Part shown: piece by piece, positions 10,082-62,877 of the stretch
Layout: each line of letters opens with the position of its first letter
How positions within the stretch are numbered: position 1 is the stretch's first letter
Source of the DNA: Albugo candida
Taxonomy: Eukaryota
DNA length: 64,000 nucleotides
Reading direction: 5' to 3'
NCBI GenBank assembly: GCA_040437565.1
Contig: JBDOQK010000001.1
Location: 1-64,000 of the forward strand
Translations under genes and position numbers: made by a program
Notes under the pieces: model-generated
The model's input: only the letters and a program-made list of their open reading frames with translations
Database searches by the model: none
Told to the model about the DNA's origin: nothing

Positions 10082-12538
10082 GTCCTCAGAACAGACGGAG
10101 GCGGGGAGTATGGATTGGTTTTGTAGGGACGTCGGCATAGCGCGGTAGGTAAGTGAATTAAGGAACTATGTCAGCAATGGAAGGGCAGGAAGAATGCACC
10201 GTACCATAATCAACATGGTGCGGAGCATGACTTTCCCTGTGGTTTACCGTTAAGCTTTTTGAAAGACGCAGCTGAATATTCTGCGTTCATTCTATACAGA
10301 AGCCTCAGTAAGGCAACGAAAGGCAGACAATCAACACTTCTAATGCCCACAACACCCTCGTACTTAGCGATATCGTGGTATTTGGATCGCCATGTACGGA
10401 ACACCGCGACGCGAGGAACGAATCGCTGGGCAAGAGAGGCAAGGGTGGGCTACTCATTGAATAAATTGATGAAATCAAGAGCTATTGAATCTATATTCCG
10501 AAGGAAAGGCTTCTTATTTTAACTCGGCATGTCCGGAACGTCGATGCACTCACGACTACACAAAAGAAGCAGCTCGAACACTCACTTCTCGAAGTTGAAG
10601 ACACACCCACTAAATTGATCACTCCAGTGAATGAGACGGTAACGAAAATGCGTGGCAACACACGAGGTCGAAAGAGTTCCTGGACGCGGATGCGTACGGT
10701 TCTCGTCGTACTCCACAAAAGGAGAAAAATGCGTTTCTTGGTGAACAGTGTAAGGGAGGCTGACCCAAAGAACAATGAACAGGGCATGCGCAGCGCTCAA
10801 ACGTACAGGGGATTATTGCTATGAAAAAAGTGCTTGATGCGCTGAACAAGATAGATGGTAGTGCCACCTAAGGGCACTTACGTTTTGCACACCAAATGGG
10901 TGTTTCAAACAAAGGAAGACGACGACGGCTCAATTGAACGTTCTAAAGCCAGGCTCGTAGCCTACGGGAACGAGCATCTATTCGGTGTTAATTACGGACT
11001 CACGTTTGCGGCGGCCATGTAGTTAAGCACTGTCAAGGTCATTCTTGGATTTGCACGTCGTTGGTAAGTACCAGCCAACCATGGGTTATCCTCACCGTCT
11101 ACGCAAAGGCAGATAAGGAGAAGAACATGAAGATTTATGTTTTTATCCCACAGGGAATGAATTTACCGGACGGCGCTACAAAAAGCTGTGGCATGGAAAG
11201 TGAAAAGGGACTGTCTGATATGAATAGATTAGGTTTCGCATGGCTGGGTGTTAGAGCACACGTCCACTAAGCAAGAAGAATTAAACTTTATTACGTCTAT
11301 TTCTATCCTATTTCCTCCAAAGTCGAACAGTGCCATATATTAGTACAAATTGAAATATTTGCTGACTTAAAATGATACTGGTAACCCCCACACACACAGT
11401 CATATATGTAGACAATCCGACTATGTCATCGTAATATTCAATATCAAGTTAAATGTGATGGGAAACGAGAACTTCATTTTTTAGCTGATATATTTGTCGG
11501 ATTTCNNNNNNNNNNNNNNNNNNNNNNNNNNNNNNNNNNNNNNNNNNNNNNNNNNNNNNNNNNNNNNNNNNNNNNNNNNNNNNNNNNNNNNNNNNNNNNN
11601 NNNNNGGTCCACAAGGTTTCTATAACGCGCATTGAACATGAAAATAATGATGGATACACGCTGGTTCAATCAGTTGCAATTGTAGAGCTATTGGATCAAC
11701 AAGGTCTCGATAAAGCTAATATCGCACACAGACAAATCGGTGATGAGTGCTACAAATTGGACTGGGAAGTAGTGCGGCTACTCGAGCAAAGTAAGAATGG
11801 CAACGTAACAACAGTGCGTAACTTCCCGTAGCTCGTGAGAAGCCTGCTGTGGAGTGCTCGCTGTCCGGCCAGTCATCAGCTTTGAGGTGCATAGGGCCAC
11901 GCGGCTTACGCACCAGCCATTCACAAGTGACGGGAAGCTTGCGAACCGAATTGCTCGCTAGCTCTAGCACACAAAGAAACTAAAGCTGCGATTATATCCC
12001 TAAAACCTTGTACAGCACGATCGTCTTGAGCTTCTGAAGCGACTCTCACTCCGCTGCATACAAGGGTGATAGGGAGTCTGTAAGCGGCGGCTTTGTCACT
12101 ATGGAAGGTGGTATCATTCAGTGGTTCTGTTACAAACAGACAGGCGTGTCTCTGTCGTCTAGGGAGTCACAGTTAACGTCTGCATCGCATCTCAGACGTG
12201 AACTTCTTGCGCTTAAGGAGTTAATGCGCAAAATTAGTCTTAAGGTAGAAGAGCTATGTGCATGATGATGGATGATCAAGCCGCGATTCGGTTGCTGGAC
12301 TCTGAAGGCAGCGTGGGAAGCTCTAAACACGTAGATATACAGGTGATGTTTATTTGTGATTACGCTATCAAGGGAATTGTAAAGTAGACGGTTGTAAGAG
12401 ACCCATGTCGGTCGTCCACTCTCTGATATGAATAGATTAGGTTTCGCATGGCTGGGTGTTAGAGCACACGTCCACTAGGCAAGAAGAGTTAAACTTTATT
12501 ACGTCTACTTCTATCCTATTTCCTCCAAAGTCGAACAG
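10082..12538 (+). mobile_element. Degenerate Ty1/Copia LTR retrotransposon (integrase, RT, RNase H, probable 3' LTR ~12392-12538), split by gaps
   Basis: Integrase VLRTDGGGEY. RT VLHTKWVFQTK..DGSIERSKARLVAYGNEHLFGVNYGLTFAAAM. RNase H DRESVSGGFV...WFCYKQTGVSLSSRES...MDDQAAI...SKHVDI. Many stops and frameshifts. A candidate LTR runs TGTAAG...GAACA. Confidence 0.85.
11214..11505 (+). repeat. 292-bp direct duplicate of 12422-12713
   Basis: Near-identical copies with about 8 small differences by eye. The first copy ends at an N gap. Confidence 0.9.
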
Positions 12539-28480: not shown

Positions 28481-31400
28481 GCCGCACCAGATGGACATTT
28501 CTCACCCATTGGATCTACTCTATCCATTAATCAATTGACCGGAAATAAAGAAACAGTCAGGGGTAAGCGAATGCTAGGGTCCCATAATACGAACTCGACA
28601 GAGCCGTGGAAACGCTCTTAAGTGTAATACAAATACGTCCTTCTTGGTGCGAACCGTCATTTCCAGAAACAAAAAGATCGCTAAGTAGAGATTTTGATTC
28701 ACATCAATCCTTTCAAGAGAACGTAGATTCTAATCATTCCATTTCTCACCACATCTGATTTTTTATTGCTACGCGAGGCTAAAAAGATATCAATTATTGA
28801 TGTACTCTATAGAATATTTCTCAAATGAAGCCAAAATAGGGTGATATTTGCACTTACTCTAACGCTATGAATATTGGGGTATTTAAAGACATGCCGAAAC
28901 GAATCTGTCGTCGAGGTGAACGAATTTCCAACACTGGCTATCTTTACGCAAATGAAAAAACAATTTATAGAAAAGACGATAAGAATTCAAGCACTGTCGA
29001 AAGGTGTCATGGACGGTTCACGTTTCATGGATTTCCTAACGACAGTTTTCAGGATTTTATGCACTTTCCGTTAGAGCTGATTCCTGCGCAGTAGGTTTGT
29101 AACGACTTCAAACAGTAAACGAACCTGCCAAACAAGGGGGTTCATAATACAGAAGAGGAAGGAGGAAGAGGAAGATAAAAAGCATGCAAAATATCCGCGC
29201 TTCTACATTTGCCAATATTTCGTCAGGAATCCTCTTGTCTACACATTTGACATCTAACAGGGACTGCTGACAATAAAATGCTCAATTGCGTTGACTGATG
29301 CAAAAAGTTAAAGTGGTAGAGTGACCAATATCAGACGCGGTCATTCACTGGTTTGGCTCAAAACAATAGCTACGGGCACGAGAGCTGATAATGTAATTTG
29401 TTAGCTAATTGTTTGACTATCCAAATTCCCTGCAGTCCGCTTTGGAAATTATTTCCATTAAACTTCAAAGATAGCTAGTCGGAAGACATCCGGCCGATTC
29501 TTGGGGCTTCACACCATTCATCTTCCTTCTTAATGTTCCATTCTGACTGAACTTCCTGATGCAGATGATTTACTTAGTGCTAAAAATCACCTCCTACAAA
29601 GTCGCTAGATTTTTATCAAGAAAGTTTCTAGCTTCTAGCCATGTTTCGTGTACATTTCAATTATGACGCTGTTAATGATTAATACAACGTCTATTGAATT
29701 TTACTTAGTACAAACAGAGTGATAGCATACTGCAATGCGTCAAGATGAATAAGGCATTCCCACACACGCGTGGGATAAGTTATTTCAGGGAAACTTTACC
29801 TTCCTTCAATTGTACATTCGTATAATGGATCGCAAAAATTTGACATATCAGAGCTTTGCCTGCCCACCGAAGCAAAATCATCGCAATCATCTTATCATGA
29901 TGCATCCTTACTTCTTATGCCATCGACATAGCTGTATTGGAGCTGACTTATTGGTATTTGAATTGGCAACAACGTGGTACATTTATAGGACTCCGTTAAA
30001 CCATCTGAATAAATCATATCAAGAAAGAAAGATGGATAAAAGTAAGTTTGGATGAGTATGACAATGTTAGCACCAGTGTGTCTGCGAAAAATGGAGTCGT
30101 TCATTTACGAGAGTAGATACATCGAGCGCATTCAGCAACAAAGCTGCGATATCAATCAAGGGTGTGACTATTGCAACAGACAAAACACCGCTTATTGGCT
30201 AATTTGTGTAAAGTAGCATGATTGACTACTTTGTGTGACTCATCGATCGTTTTCACTATTTCTACACACGATTCACTAGTGCCACAGACAAAACGAATCT
30301 GATTGACTAGTTTGTGTAAACCAACATGATTCATCGAAAGGGTGACTATATTACGACTGCGTCTACCTAAGATACATAATATAAATTCTAATTCGATTTT
30401 ATTCTTGCAATTCGTAGGGTCCGAGCGGTGTCATGCTTCCCCACAAGCTCTGCATAAACGTTTTTTGGTTTTTTTCTTGGTTTCCACATACTCAAACCCA
30501 GGTAACTTGCGTCGCGTCGATCCATTTTTCTGGTGCGGCCTCTGTTTGGGGCACGCAATTACTGGCTCATGCAAAGATTTTGGAATTTGTTGCGAAAGTG
30601 TCTGAAGTTCGTCGATTGTCGTATGCTGGTGATGGTCTGGCAAAGCTCCAAAGCAGGTGGCCACTAAATTAAGCAATAACGGGAGACTTTTCGCTGGCTG
30701 CAACATAAAGGGACTTAGTTGGTGGGGCTTAGCCAAGTGCCAATGCGGATGGATGTCGCTCATTTGCAAGTTTTGCTTTTGTCGCAGGTACTGACGCAGG
30801 TATTGACGCAGGTATTGCTTCCAGGGAAGACCCCAGACGGTGCGAAACACTCCAGAGCATAAGTCTCCGTCGTTTCTTTGTGGCTGATGGACAACTTTTA
30901 ACTATTCGTGGATTTTATTCCGTGCAAAATGCGAAATTTTCAAATTAATATCCAGAAAGTCATTCCTGGAGGCCTTGGCTGTGCATAGTTGCAAATTCTC
31001 ATCTGTTGACGCTGTCGGGACACATCGTACTCTGCAAGTTTAATTTCAACAGCTAGCTATAATTTTTCACAATACGAAAGAAGGTGGTTCAAGCTAGTTG
31101 GCTTGTCTTGCTTGAGCATGCGGTGGGCATTTTCACCGCGCGAGGTTGCAGTATGACCGAAATGCGTTACACGGTCAGTTCAAGTAGCAACAAACATTTA
31201 TTTATATAAAATCCATGTTTCGACAATATACTTGATGATTGCACTGTCTGCACGCAATCTGAAACGTTGCCATAGTTCTTCGACGGAGCCTTCAGTTTCT
31301 GCGTACATGATTGCCCTCCAATCCTTCATGAACGCTATTCATTCTTCTTCTCTTGGAATAGATGCTTTGCATTTTTTTACTATGTTTTTCAATATGCCAT

Positions 31401-32020
31401 ACGCATAAGAGAATTTGGGATGCAGGAATGTGTTCTTGAATTCCTGGAAGTAGTGCCATCTCGCGATCAACGACAAAGGCTTTCGGGAGAAATCCGTCCC
31501 TAAAGATCCATCGAAAGAATTTTATTGCTGAAGAGTGTGAGGATTGACTCTCGTTCGTCATGAAAAAAATGCGACGGAAATTGTTTTATACATCGACGAG
31601 CACCCAACGAGATGCAACAACGGAAGCTTCAAAGCATTTTTCTTAAATGTGGCATCCACCAGAAAAATGTCATTGTGGCTCCGACCCATCTCGGTAGATG
31701 TTGGATGGGTAAAGTACAGGTGGGAATTTTTCCGTCATCAGTGTTCACTATTGTTTCAACATCAAATTGCAATATGCGAAATTTCTGTGAAAGGGCATCC
31801 ATCGATGTACAGCCATTCAATGTTCAATGAATTGCAGCTTGGGGGACGTTATCCAGTTTCGTTTTAGGCAAAACAAGTCCATGATCATTCCGCAAACATT
31901 CTTAAATGTTTCTCGTTGAAACCCCATCATCATACAATCCAACTATTGTCTATTCCATTTCTGTATCGAGTCTGAGGTGGATAGGATGAGCGCTTGTGGA
32001 GGTGGACGGCATATGATTAT

Positions 32021-32170: not shown

Positions 32171-35100
32171 CTCCTTCTTTTCTGGTTGCACTTGAAATTT
32201 TGCCATCTTCAACTTGCATCGTTCGATCCCGTAACTGCCATAAGTCTCTTAGCTGAAGAAATCTTGGTGTCGGAAACGCCTTTGCCTGCAAGTCGGCCAT
32301 CATCTTCGATGTATGCACGTACCTAGGTGCGATAATCTGTTTGACCATGTAAGATCTGATGAATTTTAGTCGGACGTCGATATGTTTAGCCTTGATTGAA
32401 GTAGCTTCGCTGAGAAACTGACTGATAGCCGCCTTATTATCCATCCACAAGATCATTGCCTCCTTCACTTTGAAGTTCAACTCTTTGAATAACTCCCTTG
32501 CTCCAAGTATTTCCTGCGGTGCCTTCGATGCTGCTACGAACTCCGCTTCCATCGTCGATACTGCCACTGAATGCTGCTTCTTGCATGACCAGCTGATCGG
32601 CATTCCATTCAAAACGAATGCTGTACCAGATGTGCTCTTTCTCGTTTCATCATCCACCGCATAATCAGCATCTGAAAACGCTTATAGGATGCCTTCTCTG
32701 GGATTGGTGCATACTTCACCACCAAGATAGAGCTTTAGAAGTTTCGTACCCTTGAGATACTTCACCCCTCTGACACCTAACGCCCAATCGGCTTTTGTTG
32801 GTGCATGAGTACGTCTCATCAGCTTGTGTATAGCGAAACTGATGTCTGGACGGGTGCAACGTGCAAACCATAAAAGGCTTCCCGCCAAAGACAAAAACTT
32901 CTTGATCGTTAGCTTCTTGACTGAACGCATCTCCAAGAGGTCCGAATTCGATGTTGTGCTATCGCTGTAGCCATGAACGATAGGCGTGAGAACCGGATGC
33001 GCTTCATCCATTTCCATTTTCGTTATCAAATCACATATGGACGGTTCCTGATCCAAAGAGTAACCATCTTCTTCGCTGTACTGAACTCGCATTCCCAGGA
33101 ACTTGCTGACGGGTCCGAGATTATTGATTAAAAGACTTGAAAGACTGTCAAATCTCGACTCGATTGTCGAAAGACTTGTCCCCGTTATCAGTATATCATC
33201 GACATATACCCCCAAAACCGTAATTCCACTTGTGTCATGGTCGTAATATAAACATGCGTCTGTGAGACTTTGTTTAGAACCGGCATTGCTTAGCTTTTCG
33301 TGCAAAAGGTGACTCCATAGCCTTCATGCTTGCTTCAACCCATATAGAATCTTTTGTAATCGTAGTACCACTTGATCACGACTCGTAACACCGAGTTCAT
33401 CCATCTTGGAAACCGATATTTGCACTCCTTGAGGCACGTGCAAATACAAGTCCAAGTTCTTTTGTGCTGGTGCCTTCACGTACGCATTAGGTACGTCATC
33501 ATGCCTCGCTGGTATTTCCCAGATCCTTGCTAACGCTAGTATGAGCTTTGCTGTCCCTAAATCCATGACTGCTGCAAATGTCATGTCGTAGTTGACTCCG
33601 AATACTTGTTTTTGCCCGCAAGCAACCATTTTAGCCTTGAACCGTTCCAGATTCCCGTTTGCGCCCGTTTTTCGCTTGAATACCCACTTGGTATGTAAGG
33701 CTTTAATCTCTTTTGTTCTTGGTACAATGGTCCGTGTTCGGTTTTCCTCTAATGAGGCTAGTTCTGCGTCTGCAGCCTCCTTCCATTCGACATGATTTAC
33801 TGACTTCATTGCTTGGTTGTGCGTCTTCGGATCCGGCTCAATAAGCACTGAAACGATGTCTCGAGCTCAACCTTTGCCTCCTTGGTTTCTGGTAACCATC
33901 TTGTTTCTTGGATCCTTCTTGTTGAGATTCATTCGTGTGCTTGTAGCAGTTGTGATTGAATCCTTTTTAACGTTGGTATCCTCATGAGCTTTCACGTCTG
34001 CATCTGTCAAATCCTGTTGAGGTCCCTTGGAATTTCCATTTCCATTTTCTCGTTCCAACGCTGACTCCACATTTGAAATGTCTTGACTAATAATGACAGT
34101 CTTTGATTTGGGTAAATCCACTTAGTACGCTTTGGTTTCATCGCAATTTCCGATGACAATTTCTCGGTCACTTCGCTTTGGGAGAGACTTTTTTCCAATT
34201 CGAAGTCGAACCGAACAAGGTGAGCCGAATGTTACCACATCAACTAGACTTGTATCCTTCCCGGTCAACACTTTCAAAGGGGTTGTCTTCCTTCGTTCGC
34301 TCTGTTTGGGCTTCTATTAAGGATATACGTCGCATATTCGGCGGCATCTCCCTAAAGTTATAGAGCCATGGAGCTTCCAAATATCGTAGACCGCACTAGA
34401 TTCATGAGTGTTCTATGCATTAGTTTAGATTTCCCATTCGACGCTTGATTTTCGGCCTCACTGATTTGTCTTCGTACTCCCTCTCCTTTATTCTGCGCCA
34501 CCATCAGTTCGTAGAACATAAATCGTGTAATCAAATCGCTTCTCGAAGTAAATTAGGAAATCTTGGACCTTCATAGCTGCGTCACTCTTCGTCTTGGCCA
34601 AGAATACCCGACAATAGCTCGATTTGTAGTCGATCAAATTGAACAAGTATCGATTTCCACGTCGGTCTAGAGGCGTGATCGTACCCTTCAGATCACTGCA
34701 TATGACTCCACCAATTCGTTCGGTTGGTGAGTTTATACCGGTATCTTTTGGAGACTGTTTGTTCTTTGTTTGCTTGCTTTCCGGGCAAGTAACGCATTTC
34801 AATCGCCGATGGTCATCAATTTCGATCGCCGAATCCGGAAGCTTTGCTATACGCTCAATAGTGTCGTAATTTAGATGACCAAATCGTTGATGGAATTGTA
34901 GAACACTTCCCATCTGTTTGTTTGTTTTGTCCACGGAATCAATTGAGGGAGTATATCCATAACACTTGATACGCGTTCTCGACCTTCTGTCTCAATCACG
35001 AGAACGTTCTTAACCATATTTACTTCGAACACGATCGCACCATCAGAAGTACGTTGAAAAGCTCTCGATCCATCTGGTTGATACATCAACTTGCATCCTT

Positions 35101-58622: not shown

Positions 58623-59327
58623 TAAGATTGGGTGAGCGTAGTGCGTGTGTGGCGAACACACATACGGTTTGGAAAGTTTCAGCTGCTGGTATTGAGCATT
58701 GGATTTGTGGCTCACAAATGTATGAAGTGCAAAAATAAGTGGGTACGTACCCAAATGGTTTGGCGCATGTTCGCACAATTATAGCTGGATGATACTTATT
58801 TAAGTGATTTATTTCAAATGCTCTGTAAACATCGTCCTTTTATTATCTGTAATAGCAACCAATATGGGATGGTAAAATGCGAAGAAAGGCGCGAATCTTT
58901 AGTCCTTATAGTGAAACGCACGTAATTGGGTTGGTAATGAGTACGCATATGAATTGGTACCCATTTGTACCGTACACAATATGGCTTTTCGTCTATTAGC
59001 GCACGGAAATTGAATGTGCTTTTTGCCTTTCTTTTGAGCCGAGAACCTCAAGTGACAAAGTTATATAGTATTACATATATGCGCATAGTATTATATTGAC
59101 TTACACGTTGCTCCCTTTTTCCTTTTGTCATAAAAGAAGGCAAAGGACGTGAGACGTCTTTCGTATTTGTAACGATGAGGGGATGACATTCCGAGTATAT
59201 TCCATGTACCAAGTACTAGAATGACGATAAGTAAGCGATGAAAGCGGAATCGAGTAGGAGAAAGCTCTCCTTATGTAATATCGTCAGCATCACAGAAGTA
59301 AAATGCGATTATGAATCATGGGAGGGT

Positions 59328-61560
59328 ATTGTTATATTTGCTCCCTTTTGAATTATATTTACTCCCTTTTAAGTCACGTGACTCACAATATTATACATGC
59401 AAACATTATCGCCTTTTCAAGTGTCACACCCAGTTTTTATGCGAGCATACGCATGATTTGATGGAGCTTACAGACAGGAATGATCACTGGAAATTGGAGC
59501 GATTGGGTAGACTTCTGCGTCTTTTGGAAAATTTAGTATTCGTAGAAAAAGGATGTGATCATTCTTGCTCTAGCAACTTAACTGATTGTCCGCTGTACGC
59601 CCCACAAGATCACTTACATCTGCCCAAGGGACTGTGCTTCTCCTATGAGATTCTGACGAGTTTGAGCGTATCAGCGGGGAGATAAAGAGATTGTGCATTA
59701 GATCGACACAATTTGCAAATGGATATCACAAAATTCTTTTCCTTGGATGAGATACTTTGTAGCTATTCCAACTAAACTTCATTTGTTTCGTGTTTTTTTC
59801 CTTCTCAAATAATCAGTTTTGCAATAGATTTCACATCACAATCTTACTGTTCGTTCTTTGTATGAAATGAAGCCGTGATTTTGCGTCGGCGCATTCTAAT
59901 TCAGCCTCAATTTGATATCAAAGAAGAGAACGAGAGAAGATCATAGTGATCGTCACAAGACCTATGAAGCACTACGTATCGTTCTCGAGTCCATCGGGCA
60001 TTTTTGAGACCGATCGTATTCAATTCTTCACAAGTTTACTTGAAATTTTTTTGATGCTACGGGAATTTCATGAACAATTTCTTCATCTCGGACTCCCCTT
60101 CCAACATCATGATGGATCCAAACTCACGAAGGATCGAATAAGGTTCGCCTACCTATAGAATTTTCATTGTTTTATCTCCGGTAAATGAAAATGACGAATT
60201 AAGCCATTCGCAAGCACGGCGTGTCATGCGTTGAGTTTCATTATGACGTCGATTTCTATCTTTTCCATACTTTTTTTCAGAAGCACCACATCGCACTGAA
60301 AGAAGAATGAGTGGCTTCATTATTCTTTTTTGATCATTGCTGAGAAGTCTCAGCAGTGATGACCGATATTTTCTCTTTTTTCCTGATGCAAATTCACCAT
60401 TCACTTTGACATTTTGTAGTAAGTGGAAGACACGATCAATAAATGCATTGCAGCTGACAACAATATCTGCATCGGCTGGATTGCGGACGTATTTTGCGTC
60501 AAATGTTGCTAGACAATGACCATCCAAGAAATACTTTGTTGCTGACATGAGGCTTCCACTTCTTCCAATTGCGCTGATTCCGGATGGACAAACTCGGCAT
60601 TGATGCCTTATCTCCACAATTTTGTCGCCACATGCGTCCGTACTAACGTCATTTCCGATGTCACTTTGGCCGAGTAGACAAGTACTAATGGACGGTTTCA
60701 AAGCAGTCATTCCAGGCCCAAGGTCTTGACCTCACTGGACAAGTTGCTGCATGTCATCAAACCAGCTATCAATATGAAACCCATCATTGAAATCCAACGA
60801 AACGGCCTGGAATACTAGACCAGAACAAAATCGATGAGGATAAGGATCGAGTCCCAAGTCGATGCGAATACATGCTAATCCAGCAACACAAGAAAAAGCT
60901 TCAATATCTTGCAATAATACGTGGATTTCAGCAAGAGCGTTTGGACGGAGATCTGAGGGATCTCCTGAGCTGGATAGAGCTTACTCAAGTCAAAATATAA
61001 AGTGATTTGTGTGCTTGCGTTCCCACCCTCATAGAATGATTCCATGGAAATAGAAAATATGTGACTGTAGAGTTGAGTTGCATATTTCAATACATAGTCC
61101 GAGTCGAAAATTGCACGTAAAGCTTCGGCTTCCTGTTCTCTCAGCTCTAGTGCAGGTTATATCGATTTAGGATTGGGTGATGCTTAGTTGATTTGCATAT
61201 CTATTGATGCGGCCAAGAAGCCCAGCTTTCAAAGGGGTCGATCAATCAGAATCGTACATTGCTTACATGTTTTTTTACTTTTTTCTTTCCCTACTGAGCG
61301 CACCCGATAAAAATAAGGAAGTAGTGAAGCAATAATAAAGCGCTTGGTCAAGAGCGAGTGGCTCTATGACTCGTTACAGTATCATGAATGTAAGGCTGTG
61401 TACCGGTACTTATGATTAAGCTCTAAATCAGAAGATTGGCAAATGTGTCGCTTGCGAAATTCTGAGCTGGTAGCTTTGTATTATAAATAAAACATAATAT
61501 TGTGGGTCACGTGACTTAAAAGGGAGTGAATATAACCAAAAAAGGAGTGAATAGAACAAT
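59328..61560. mobile_element. ~2.2-kb TIR-bounded element with no recognisable transposase
   Basis: 67-bp ungapped inverted repeats at 59328-59394 and 61494-61560, 58/67 identical by hand count. Each contains two TTATATTYRCTCCCTTTT-like subrepeats and a GTCACGTGAC palindrome. Confidence 0.8.
60153..61100 (-). pseudogene. Decayed gene with uracil-DNA glycosylase (family 1/viral UDG)-like motifs
   Basis: DIEAFS...IRIDLGLDPYP....SGLVF, then in the same frame past one stop G.SA...GS...FLDGH and VSCNAF. The Asp-to-His spacing is about 110 aa. Confidence 0.4.
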
Positions 61561-62774
61561 TTCGTTGCACTCATGACAGCAATTAGGACGGTATTTCCAG
61601 ATACAGCAAATATTCTCCGTGTTTAGCAAATATAGAAATGTTTGCTCACACACTCCAAACAACGATGTTTTGCAGCGTAATGGACAGAGTTTATGGGACT
61701 TGGAATGGTAAATCAGAAGCACCAACAGTGAAATGTTTTAGAGCAACTGGACAAACTTCAATGCACACCTTTCAACAATCATCAGCTATATAAAGAACAT
61801 GGAAGCATTTAAAAGAATAATTTATTTCATACTGGACTTCGCGTTTCCTGCATCTGAGGCACATATTCAGTTTCAGGGAAGAAGGGAATCAATCAACATT
61901 AAAACGATGGTTGTAGATCTCAACAATGGATTCGCAAAAGTCAACAGCAGGATCACAACGTATGTTGATCACCAAGCAAGGGAATTGCAGGTAAAGATAG
62001 GCTATGGAAGTATCCAAAAATGGCTGGACTTGGGTGAAGGATTTCATGATCAAGTAATCAATAAGAATTGAATATTCGTTTTGATATAATTGCACGATCA
62101 CGTGTGCACTGGATATGAGAACTTCACTTTAACGTGTTTCGCTAAATTTCAAGAACTATTATATTGCCTTGTCTCTGCCGACTTCTAGAAAAATAGTAGA
62201 AATTGTCCATAAACAGTGTCCATTCACAATGGCCATTGACCTACCTCGTCCTTGCCTGCAAAGGATCAATTAAGGCACAAACCTTTGATATAATCTCTGT
62301 AACCAACAGTATTGCTAAGGTTTATTGCACATTAGGTACGCCCCAGCAAGCTGATGGAACTTACTTTACAAAGGTTTTCGAGCACCAAATGAGCCTCATA
62401 TAAAGTGAACAAGAGGCAAACCATCGATCTCATTCATCAACAAGAAGGAGACCTCATTGCATGAATTTGTGAAACACGGCAAAGGTGTAGAAGGTGTGGT
62501 CGAATTAGGCACAACATCAGCACCTGTCCAAGATGGAGAAAACCAGGGGGTTTCCCATTAATTGGAGATGTTGTTAGGTATAAAGACAGCTGTAGAATTT
62601 CGTTTAATTTTTACAGAGTTTTGTGTCTACTATTTGTGTCGTAATAAAATTTTCGGGCTTTTGTTTGAGTCTACAAGAAACGTATTGGGATTAATAGACA
62701 CGAAAAAGAAACCCATATAGAATGCTCGTTCAACACTCCATTGGCTGCTTAATTGTCGATTTAGCAATTTATTC

Positions 62775-62877
62775 CTAAAATTGAACAAGAAATCATGTTT
62801 ACGATCAAGCAAAAGCAAACGGACCTTTCCGTGTTGCTTTTGCTTGATCGTAAACATGATTTCTTGTTCAATTTTAG
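62775..62877. repeat. 103-nt near-perfect hairpin ending at a gap
   Basis: 44-bp perfect inverted arms (62775-62818 and 62834-62877) plus an inner ACGGA/TCCGT stem and a 4-nt loop. Confidence 0.85.

Follow-up and report, generated by a model that had tools for sequence, protein, structure and literature searches.

Near the right end of the window, the 64,000-nucleotide stretch of the Albugo candida genome analyzed here, lies an element that is very probably a non-autonomous Mutator-like transposon (Pack-MULE) whose cargo is a dead copy of the GCN2 locus of the host. Its terminal inverted repeats (TIRs) are common to other elements of the genome, its cargo matches the GCN2 donor at the DNA level and is broken, and shorter derivatives are dispersed over the assembly.

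The inverted repeats at 59328-59394 and 61494-61560 are 67 nt long, 87% complementary and 2099 nt apart, which agrees with the preliminary description of this DNA. In the 36.6-Mb assembly, a 26-nt TIR core occurs 74 times at no more than 2 mismatches and its reversed control does not occur, so the TIRs represent a repeat family and not a chance pairing. By comparison with family members, which start with GGGAATTG and end with CAATTCCC, the true ends of the element lie about 4 nt outside the repeats, at 59324 and 61564. The TIRs of the family consist of one to three related units each, and the left TIR in the window is a single unit. The element and its right flank are divided as follows.

59324..59408, plus strand: left TIR unit of the MULE family (repeat comparison, core search)
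59409..59909, minus strand: captured DNA downstream of GCN2, equivalent to C2 345315-345846 (DNA alignment)
59910..60775, minus strand: decayed GCN2 3' coding DNA, end of the HisRS-like domain and C-terminal domain (host second-frame aa 376-674)
60780..60938, minus strand: GCN2 HisRS-like piece, 94% DNA identity (host second-frame aa 276-328)
60948..61168, minus strand: initial two thirds of the RWD domain of GCN2, with a stop at 61159 ahead of it
61169..61490, minus strand: predicted first intron and first exon of GCN2 with ~200 nt of upstream DNA; ATG lost
61491..61564, minus strand: right TIR unit, tip slightly altered; no target-site duplication with the left flank
61565..62715, plus strand: flank outside the element, decayed transposase gene (3' half) from a different MULE family (DNA identity)

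The interior of the element is colinear with one host locus on contig C2, in the same order and orientation. Window positions 59414-60776 correspond to C2 345322-346747 (85% DNA identity), 60780-60938 to C2 346888-347046 (94%), 60942-61256 to C2 349915-350229 (87%), and 61398-61499 to C2 350330-350433 (80%). The host locus has two long frames with a short predicted intron between them. According to Pfam, the first frame (764 aa) contains an RWD and a protein kinase domain, and the second (674 aa) contains HisRS-like and anticodon-binding domains. The best solved-structure match of the second frame is GCN2 (E=3.9e-36; PDB 8t7t and 9f58), followed by histidyl-tRNA synthetases. The oomycete homologues of the C2 gene (P0004-P0012) carry the names GCN2 or eIF2-alpha kinase 4 (eIF2AK4); the closest, P0004 from Albugo laibachii, is 81-82% identical to the host protein over its length. 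With RWD, kinase, HisRS-like and C-terminal anticodon-binding-like domains, the C2 gene has the full GCN2 domain set. Judged by these alignments, the donor of the cargo is the host GCN2 gene (eIF2-alpha kinase), a single locus on C2.

The cargo is without ~2.87 kb of host DNA, including the whole kinase, and the RWD piece joins the HisRS-like piece across this gap; about half of the HisRS-like domain is missing as well. A Pfam scan of six frames of the element gives RWD (61156-60878, E=6e-8) as the sole match over the cut-off, and five interior frames of the window element have no Pfam match apart from it. Because the copy retains promoter-side DNA, the predicted first intron and ~500 nt from downstream of the gene, the capture took place at the DNA level; the same intron and flanking DNA rule out a retrocopy origin. 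We predict the first intron itself from GT..AG boundaries, a stop in frame and the N-terminal sequence of P0004. On the other side, the captured downstream DNA stops ~70 nt before the open frame of a neighboring E2F/DP-like gene.

We searched C2 336000-367000 for the TIR core and found none at up to 7 mismatches around the host gene, and the idea that host GCN2 is itself transposon-borne was dropped on this basis. A TIR-like piece of another repeat family begins ~15 nt past the upstream capture boundary. Directly beyond this boundary lies a repeat nest (C2:350448-352907), and the TIR-like piece of the second family in it also adjoins many copies of the GCN2-bearing MULE family.

Several other features were noticed around the host gene. 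Just downstream of GCN2, a 408-aa frame (L021:516-1742, minus strand) has a weak E2F/DP winged-helix match (E=4e-4, under the cut-off). A 608-aa open frame 5 kb upstream (L022:2316-4142, C2 ~354800-356600) combines an N-terminal Crinkler domain (E=2.6e-16) with a weak, kinase-like match at the C-terminus. At C2:358223-362253 there is a 1966-bp tandem duplicate of 99.7% identity with ~100 nt between its units, possibly an assembly artefact. Further away, 13 kb from the gene, locus L023 (C2:363518-364623) is a second, partial duplicate of the GCN2 5' end that has no TIRs. It is 91-95% identical, contains stops and an internal gap, and arose later than the transposon copy. Beside it, a 380-aa frame (L023:3188-4330, minus strand) has a transmembrane domain of the CNNM (cyclin M) type.

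Read in the host GCN2 frame, the window copy is split into seven segments by six frame changes and contains nine stops; the segment at 59910..60775 has 8 stops and 4 internal frame changes. With no ATG, a stop in front of the RWD domain and no kinase, the cargo, as far as its frames tell, makes no protein of use. Yeast work gives rise to the idea of a dominant-negative RWD peptide, which is ruled out here by the lost ATG and the stop ahead of the domain. With P0004 as the outgroup, 60 of 421 aligned positions are changed in the copy alone (8 of them to stops) and 14 in the host alone (p=6e-8); with two more distant outgroups, private changes in copy and host stand at 29:9 and 21:8. The pairwise comparison of copy and host gives dS 0.16, dN 0.09 and an omega of 0.57 (p=0.01 against equal rates, Fisher), a value that mixes the constrained host branch with the copy's own branch. 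Constraint on the host branch accounts for most of the departure of omega below 1, and the copy may have passed through a short functional phase. When dN is split by private changes, our own arithmetic gives an omega of roughly 0.7-0.9 for the copy, near neutral.

Among 22 paired elements of the family extracted, 11 contain GCN2 DNA. Four others (L045, L054, L056 and L061; 2.0-4.7 kb) have a common interior with broken transposase frames, and six elements of ~0.9 kb hold part of this interior. A frame of L054 matches the MULE transposase PF10551 (E=5e-23) plus an AFT-type domain, and the window TIRs are 78-88% identical to the ends of L054, L045, L056 and L057. No intact transposase with these TIRs was present among the loci fetched. 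One 724-bp element on C72 (L053:1040-1763) combines these TIRs with an interior of another kind, which is 76% identical to C36:12957-13529, near MULE remnants. Four frames there are without a Pfam match, so L053 is at most a candidate for a second host capture; a QNDGSQCG motif in one frame at the L053/L084 interior match is reminiscent of Ulp1 proteases.

The flanks of 19 elements (excluding L050, L067 and L068, whose ends are doubtful) agree best at an 8-bp register outside GGG...CCC, with a score of 0.65 vs 0.43 for shuffled pairs (z=5.5). In 6 of the 19, seven or eight of the 8 positions match, and the GCN2-bearing L006, L010, L014 and L044 match at 7 of 8 positions each. These target-site duplications (TSDs) are A/T-rich and imperfect, and their register is 8 bp, or 7 or 9 bp with shifted ends. 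GGG ends also suggest Sola, Harbinger, Merlin and hAT elements; these candidates were dropped because a MULE transposase lies between the same TIRs and registers of 3-4 bp score below that of 8 bp. For MULEs, PMC6446971 gives TSDs of 8-11 bp.

The preliminary description had proposed a DNA transposon of MULE/Pack type with no transposase inside. Both proposals hold: the TIRs are common to transposase-bearing MULEs, the family TSDs are of ~8 bp, and the interior aligns to GCN2 from end to end. At the level of the family, the element has the properties of a Pack-MULE, namely no transposase of its own, host gene DNA between TIRs and a TIR-free donor. A TSD of the window copy itself is the sole one missing, with 1 of 8 flank positions matching.

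The right flank suggests a reason for this. The DNA at 61565..62715 is 70-72% identical to copies on C124 and C39, of which the C124 copy matches the transposase query, and the 5' half of this transposase gene is absent from the window. Since the flanking MULE is truncated and lacks its other half, the TSD was likely lost in a later deletion or rearrangement. In other data sets, the element is found at the same site, with X5 contigs bridging both ends and one X6 contig the left end. In 3 of 4 runs, sequence is present where the window copy has a 7-nt gap, and no empty insertion site was found among the contigs of the 4 runs, though contigs cannot prove absence.

Elsewhere in the window, we notice a decayed MULE transposase of another family (30374-31731, minus strand) and retroelement-like remnants of reverse transcriptase/RNase H that look Copia-like by eye (11866-12253, plus strand; 32250-32891, minus strand). 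At 62775-62877, an inverted repeat of two perfect 44-nt arms around a 15-nt spacer is directly followed by an N run and may be an assembly artefact.

Cargo DNA occurs in at least 16 other places of the genome, a lower bound from 40 of 43 candidates scored. The window copy (2.2 kb) is the longest, and the others are shorter GCN2-bearing derivatives; two of these (L015 and L017) have internal duplications beside N runs, possibly artefacts of assembly. Seven of 11 loci tested begin exactly at C2 345315, the window copy begins at 345322 and three begin further in. The common start at one host base in 7 of 11 loci argues for one capture. A tree was built from the common 3' segment of the host, the window copy and 12 further copies. 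Eight of these copies share a deletion point and group as a clade with support of 100/99, and four copies with another deletion point group as a second clade (99/96). The branches of the host and the window copy measure 0.043 and 0.086, and the tree does not resolve the window copy as sister of the others. The copies are 85-90% identical to the host and on average 85% identical to each other. From these divergences, the spread of the GCN2 derivatives appears to be an old burst.

On the basis of these comparisons, we propose that a single capture placed a 5.1-kb stretch, C2 345315 to ~350435 (promoter, whole gene and downstream DNA), between two TIRs of the family. Template switching, gap repair, or the joint mobilization of two neighboring insertions could have served as the route. 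Fork stalling with template switching is the origin proposed for multi-copy Pack-TIRs in PMC8277862, and PMC8903248 presents joint mobilization of neighboring insertions as a capture route. The present data do not separate these routes; on inspection, any microhomology at the junctions is too weak for a claim. A transposase of the family would then have moved the captured locus in trans. Internal deletions would have produced the window copy (2.2 kb) and a pair of shorter sub-families (~0.9-1.1 kb), which would have amplified like MITEs, while the cargo would have decayed under little or no selection. Later, a rearrangement at the window site would have removed the TSD and brought the element up against one half of a different MULE.

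A copy of the kinase part between TIRs was found nowhere in the assembly; for this reason, the capture of the whole gene is something that we infer and do not see. It is conceivable, if rather unlikely, that two separate GCN2 pieces, the 5' end and the 3' half, were taken in one template-switching event and that the whole gene was never captured. The absence of the kinase part from every copy and the template switching proposed for multi-copy Pack-TIRs (PMC8277862) would suit such an event. However, the pieces lie in host order and orientation from the promoter through the downstream DNA, and three internal junctions in three lineages have the same outer left boundary. Since three different junctions share one left boundary, stepwise deletion fits, and the two shorter types could derive from an ancestor like the window copy.

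Promoter-side and 3'-end GCN2 DNA is kept at no fewer than 17 places, which raises the question of whether the copy or its derivatives regulate host GCN2 via small RNAs or antisense transcripts. In maize, captured fragments are described as siRNA sources acting on donor genes (PMC13317346). Nevertheless, an identity of 85-90% to the host would leave few perfect matches of 21-25 nt, and the copies are as diverged mutually (mean 85%) as from the host, which is expected without selection. We consider such regulation improbable. More doubtful still is the full scenario, in which the whole 5.1-kb GCN2 locus was captured and at least 17 derivatives would now yield small RNAs that tune host GCN2, the nutrient-stress sensor.

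There is very little chance that the window holds an ordinary segmental duplicate of GCN2, flanked fortuitously by two independent MITE-like TIR units. Plain duplication of GCN2 does occur, as seen from the TIR-free partial duplicate at C2 363518-364623, and a window copy without a TSD would be in keeping with it. Against this, the same TIR-to-GCN2 junctions are found at 16 or more other places, and four tested loci (L006, L010, L014 and L044) have 7/8 flank matches. Junctions common to many loci, together with TSDs, indicate that the unit moved as a transposon.

Practically nothing speaks for the remaining reading, that of the preliminary description, in which the element carries a divergent uracil-DNA glycosylase (UDG), since the cargo aligns to host GCN2. 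That reading drew on a by-eye resemblance of DLGLDPYPH to UDG motif A, and on a minus-strand frame with one stop in it. The peptides cited there and the TGA at 60732-60734 do occur in that frame, but they do not form one gene frame with a single stop. This frame is in the GCN2 register solely at 60938-60780, at 60494-60372 and from 60278 onward. It is off register at 60775-60497, where the TGA, GISAIGRSGSLMSATKYFLDGH and GISAIGRSGS lie. The supposed UDG motif DLGLDPYPHRFCSGLVF sits in 60780..60938, the piece of 94% DNA identity, and aligns with a HisRS-like stretch of GCN2 and HisRS. The supposed motif A and the later His motif are thus not in one gene frame, the former being HisRS-like and the latter in an off-frame stretch.

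The searches point the same way. The read-through protein has no Pfam match, and its solved-structure matches up to E=10 comprise one protein, PcrB (E=1.7), with UDG absent. A genome-wide search with the Pfam UDG profile (PF03167) gave 3 matches, none of them in the window, C1 or C2, and the read-through protein gave no alignment with the best of the host UDG matches (E=0.26). In contrast, it aligns with the C-terminal half of host GCN2 at E=3e-63. The upstream frame that had been linked to the putative UDG is the RWD domain (E=6e-8), the N-terminus of GCN2. At the level of sequence profiles, neither the protein nor an intact homologue matches UDG. The 192-aa frame has 2 matches among 1.84 billion representatives: P0002, a near-identical GCN2 half (E=1.5e-31), and P0003, an unrelated repeat protein (E=2e-4) that matches the off-frame part and was dropped as chance. 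A viral origin or a role against deamination had also been suggested, and we see no sign of either.

The capture of genes by transposons is already well known in plants, fungi and animals. As described in PMC8903248, PMC13317346 and PMC6446971, the Pack-MULEs of rice and maize resemble the Albugo element in being non-autonomous, in their MULE TIRs, in a TSD range of 8-11 bp, and in host gene DNA between the TIRs with mostly pseudogenized cargo. The Albugo element differs in its oomycete host, its single donor gene and the age of its family, which is without an intact transposase among the loci fetched. Its proposed founder would also have held a whole 5.1-kb locus, compared with the Pack-MULE median of 305 bp given in PMC8277862. 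The same source describes the Drosophila Pack-TIR Ssk-FB4, in which a nearly whole gene with upstream DNA was captured between repetitive TIRs and is present at several places. However, Ssk-FB4 is young, translated, under selection and of a different superfamily, whereas the Albugo cargo is dead and has shrunk to MITE-like derivatives. Histone H3 in a hAT element of Dothideomycete fungi, as reported in bioRxiv 10.1101/550798, is likewise a housekeeping gene amplified in a plant pathogen, with dead copies and an intact original. There the carrier is autonomous, with hundreds of copies that RIP has inactivated, while the Albugo carrier is a non-autonomous MULE whose cargo has decayed through deletions and point changes.

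Our literature search, which covered subscription journals thinly, found no oomycete Pack-MULE described, and the main text of two oomycete papers (PMC4040989 and PMC13585763) describes none. Extra frames (SET) in Phytophthora MULEs are already tabulated in PMC6446971.

The element is thus neither a new enzyme nor a viral relic, and it carries a warning for annotation, as broken GCN2 pieces read off-frame can resemble new genes. The family provides a clean series from gene capture to MITE-like derivatives. Our findings show host genes being duplicated by Mutator elements in an oomycete, and this route is often invoked to explain duplication in such pathogens.
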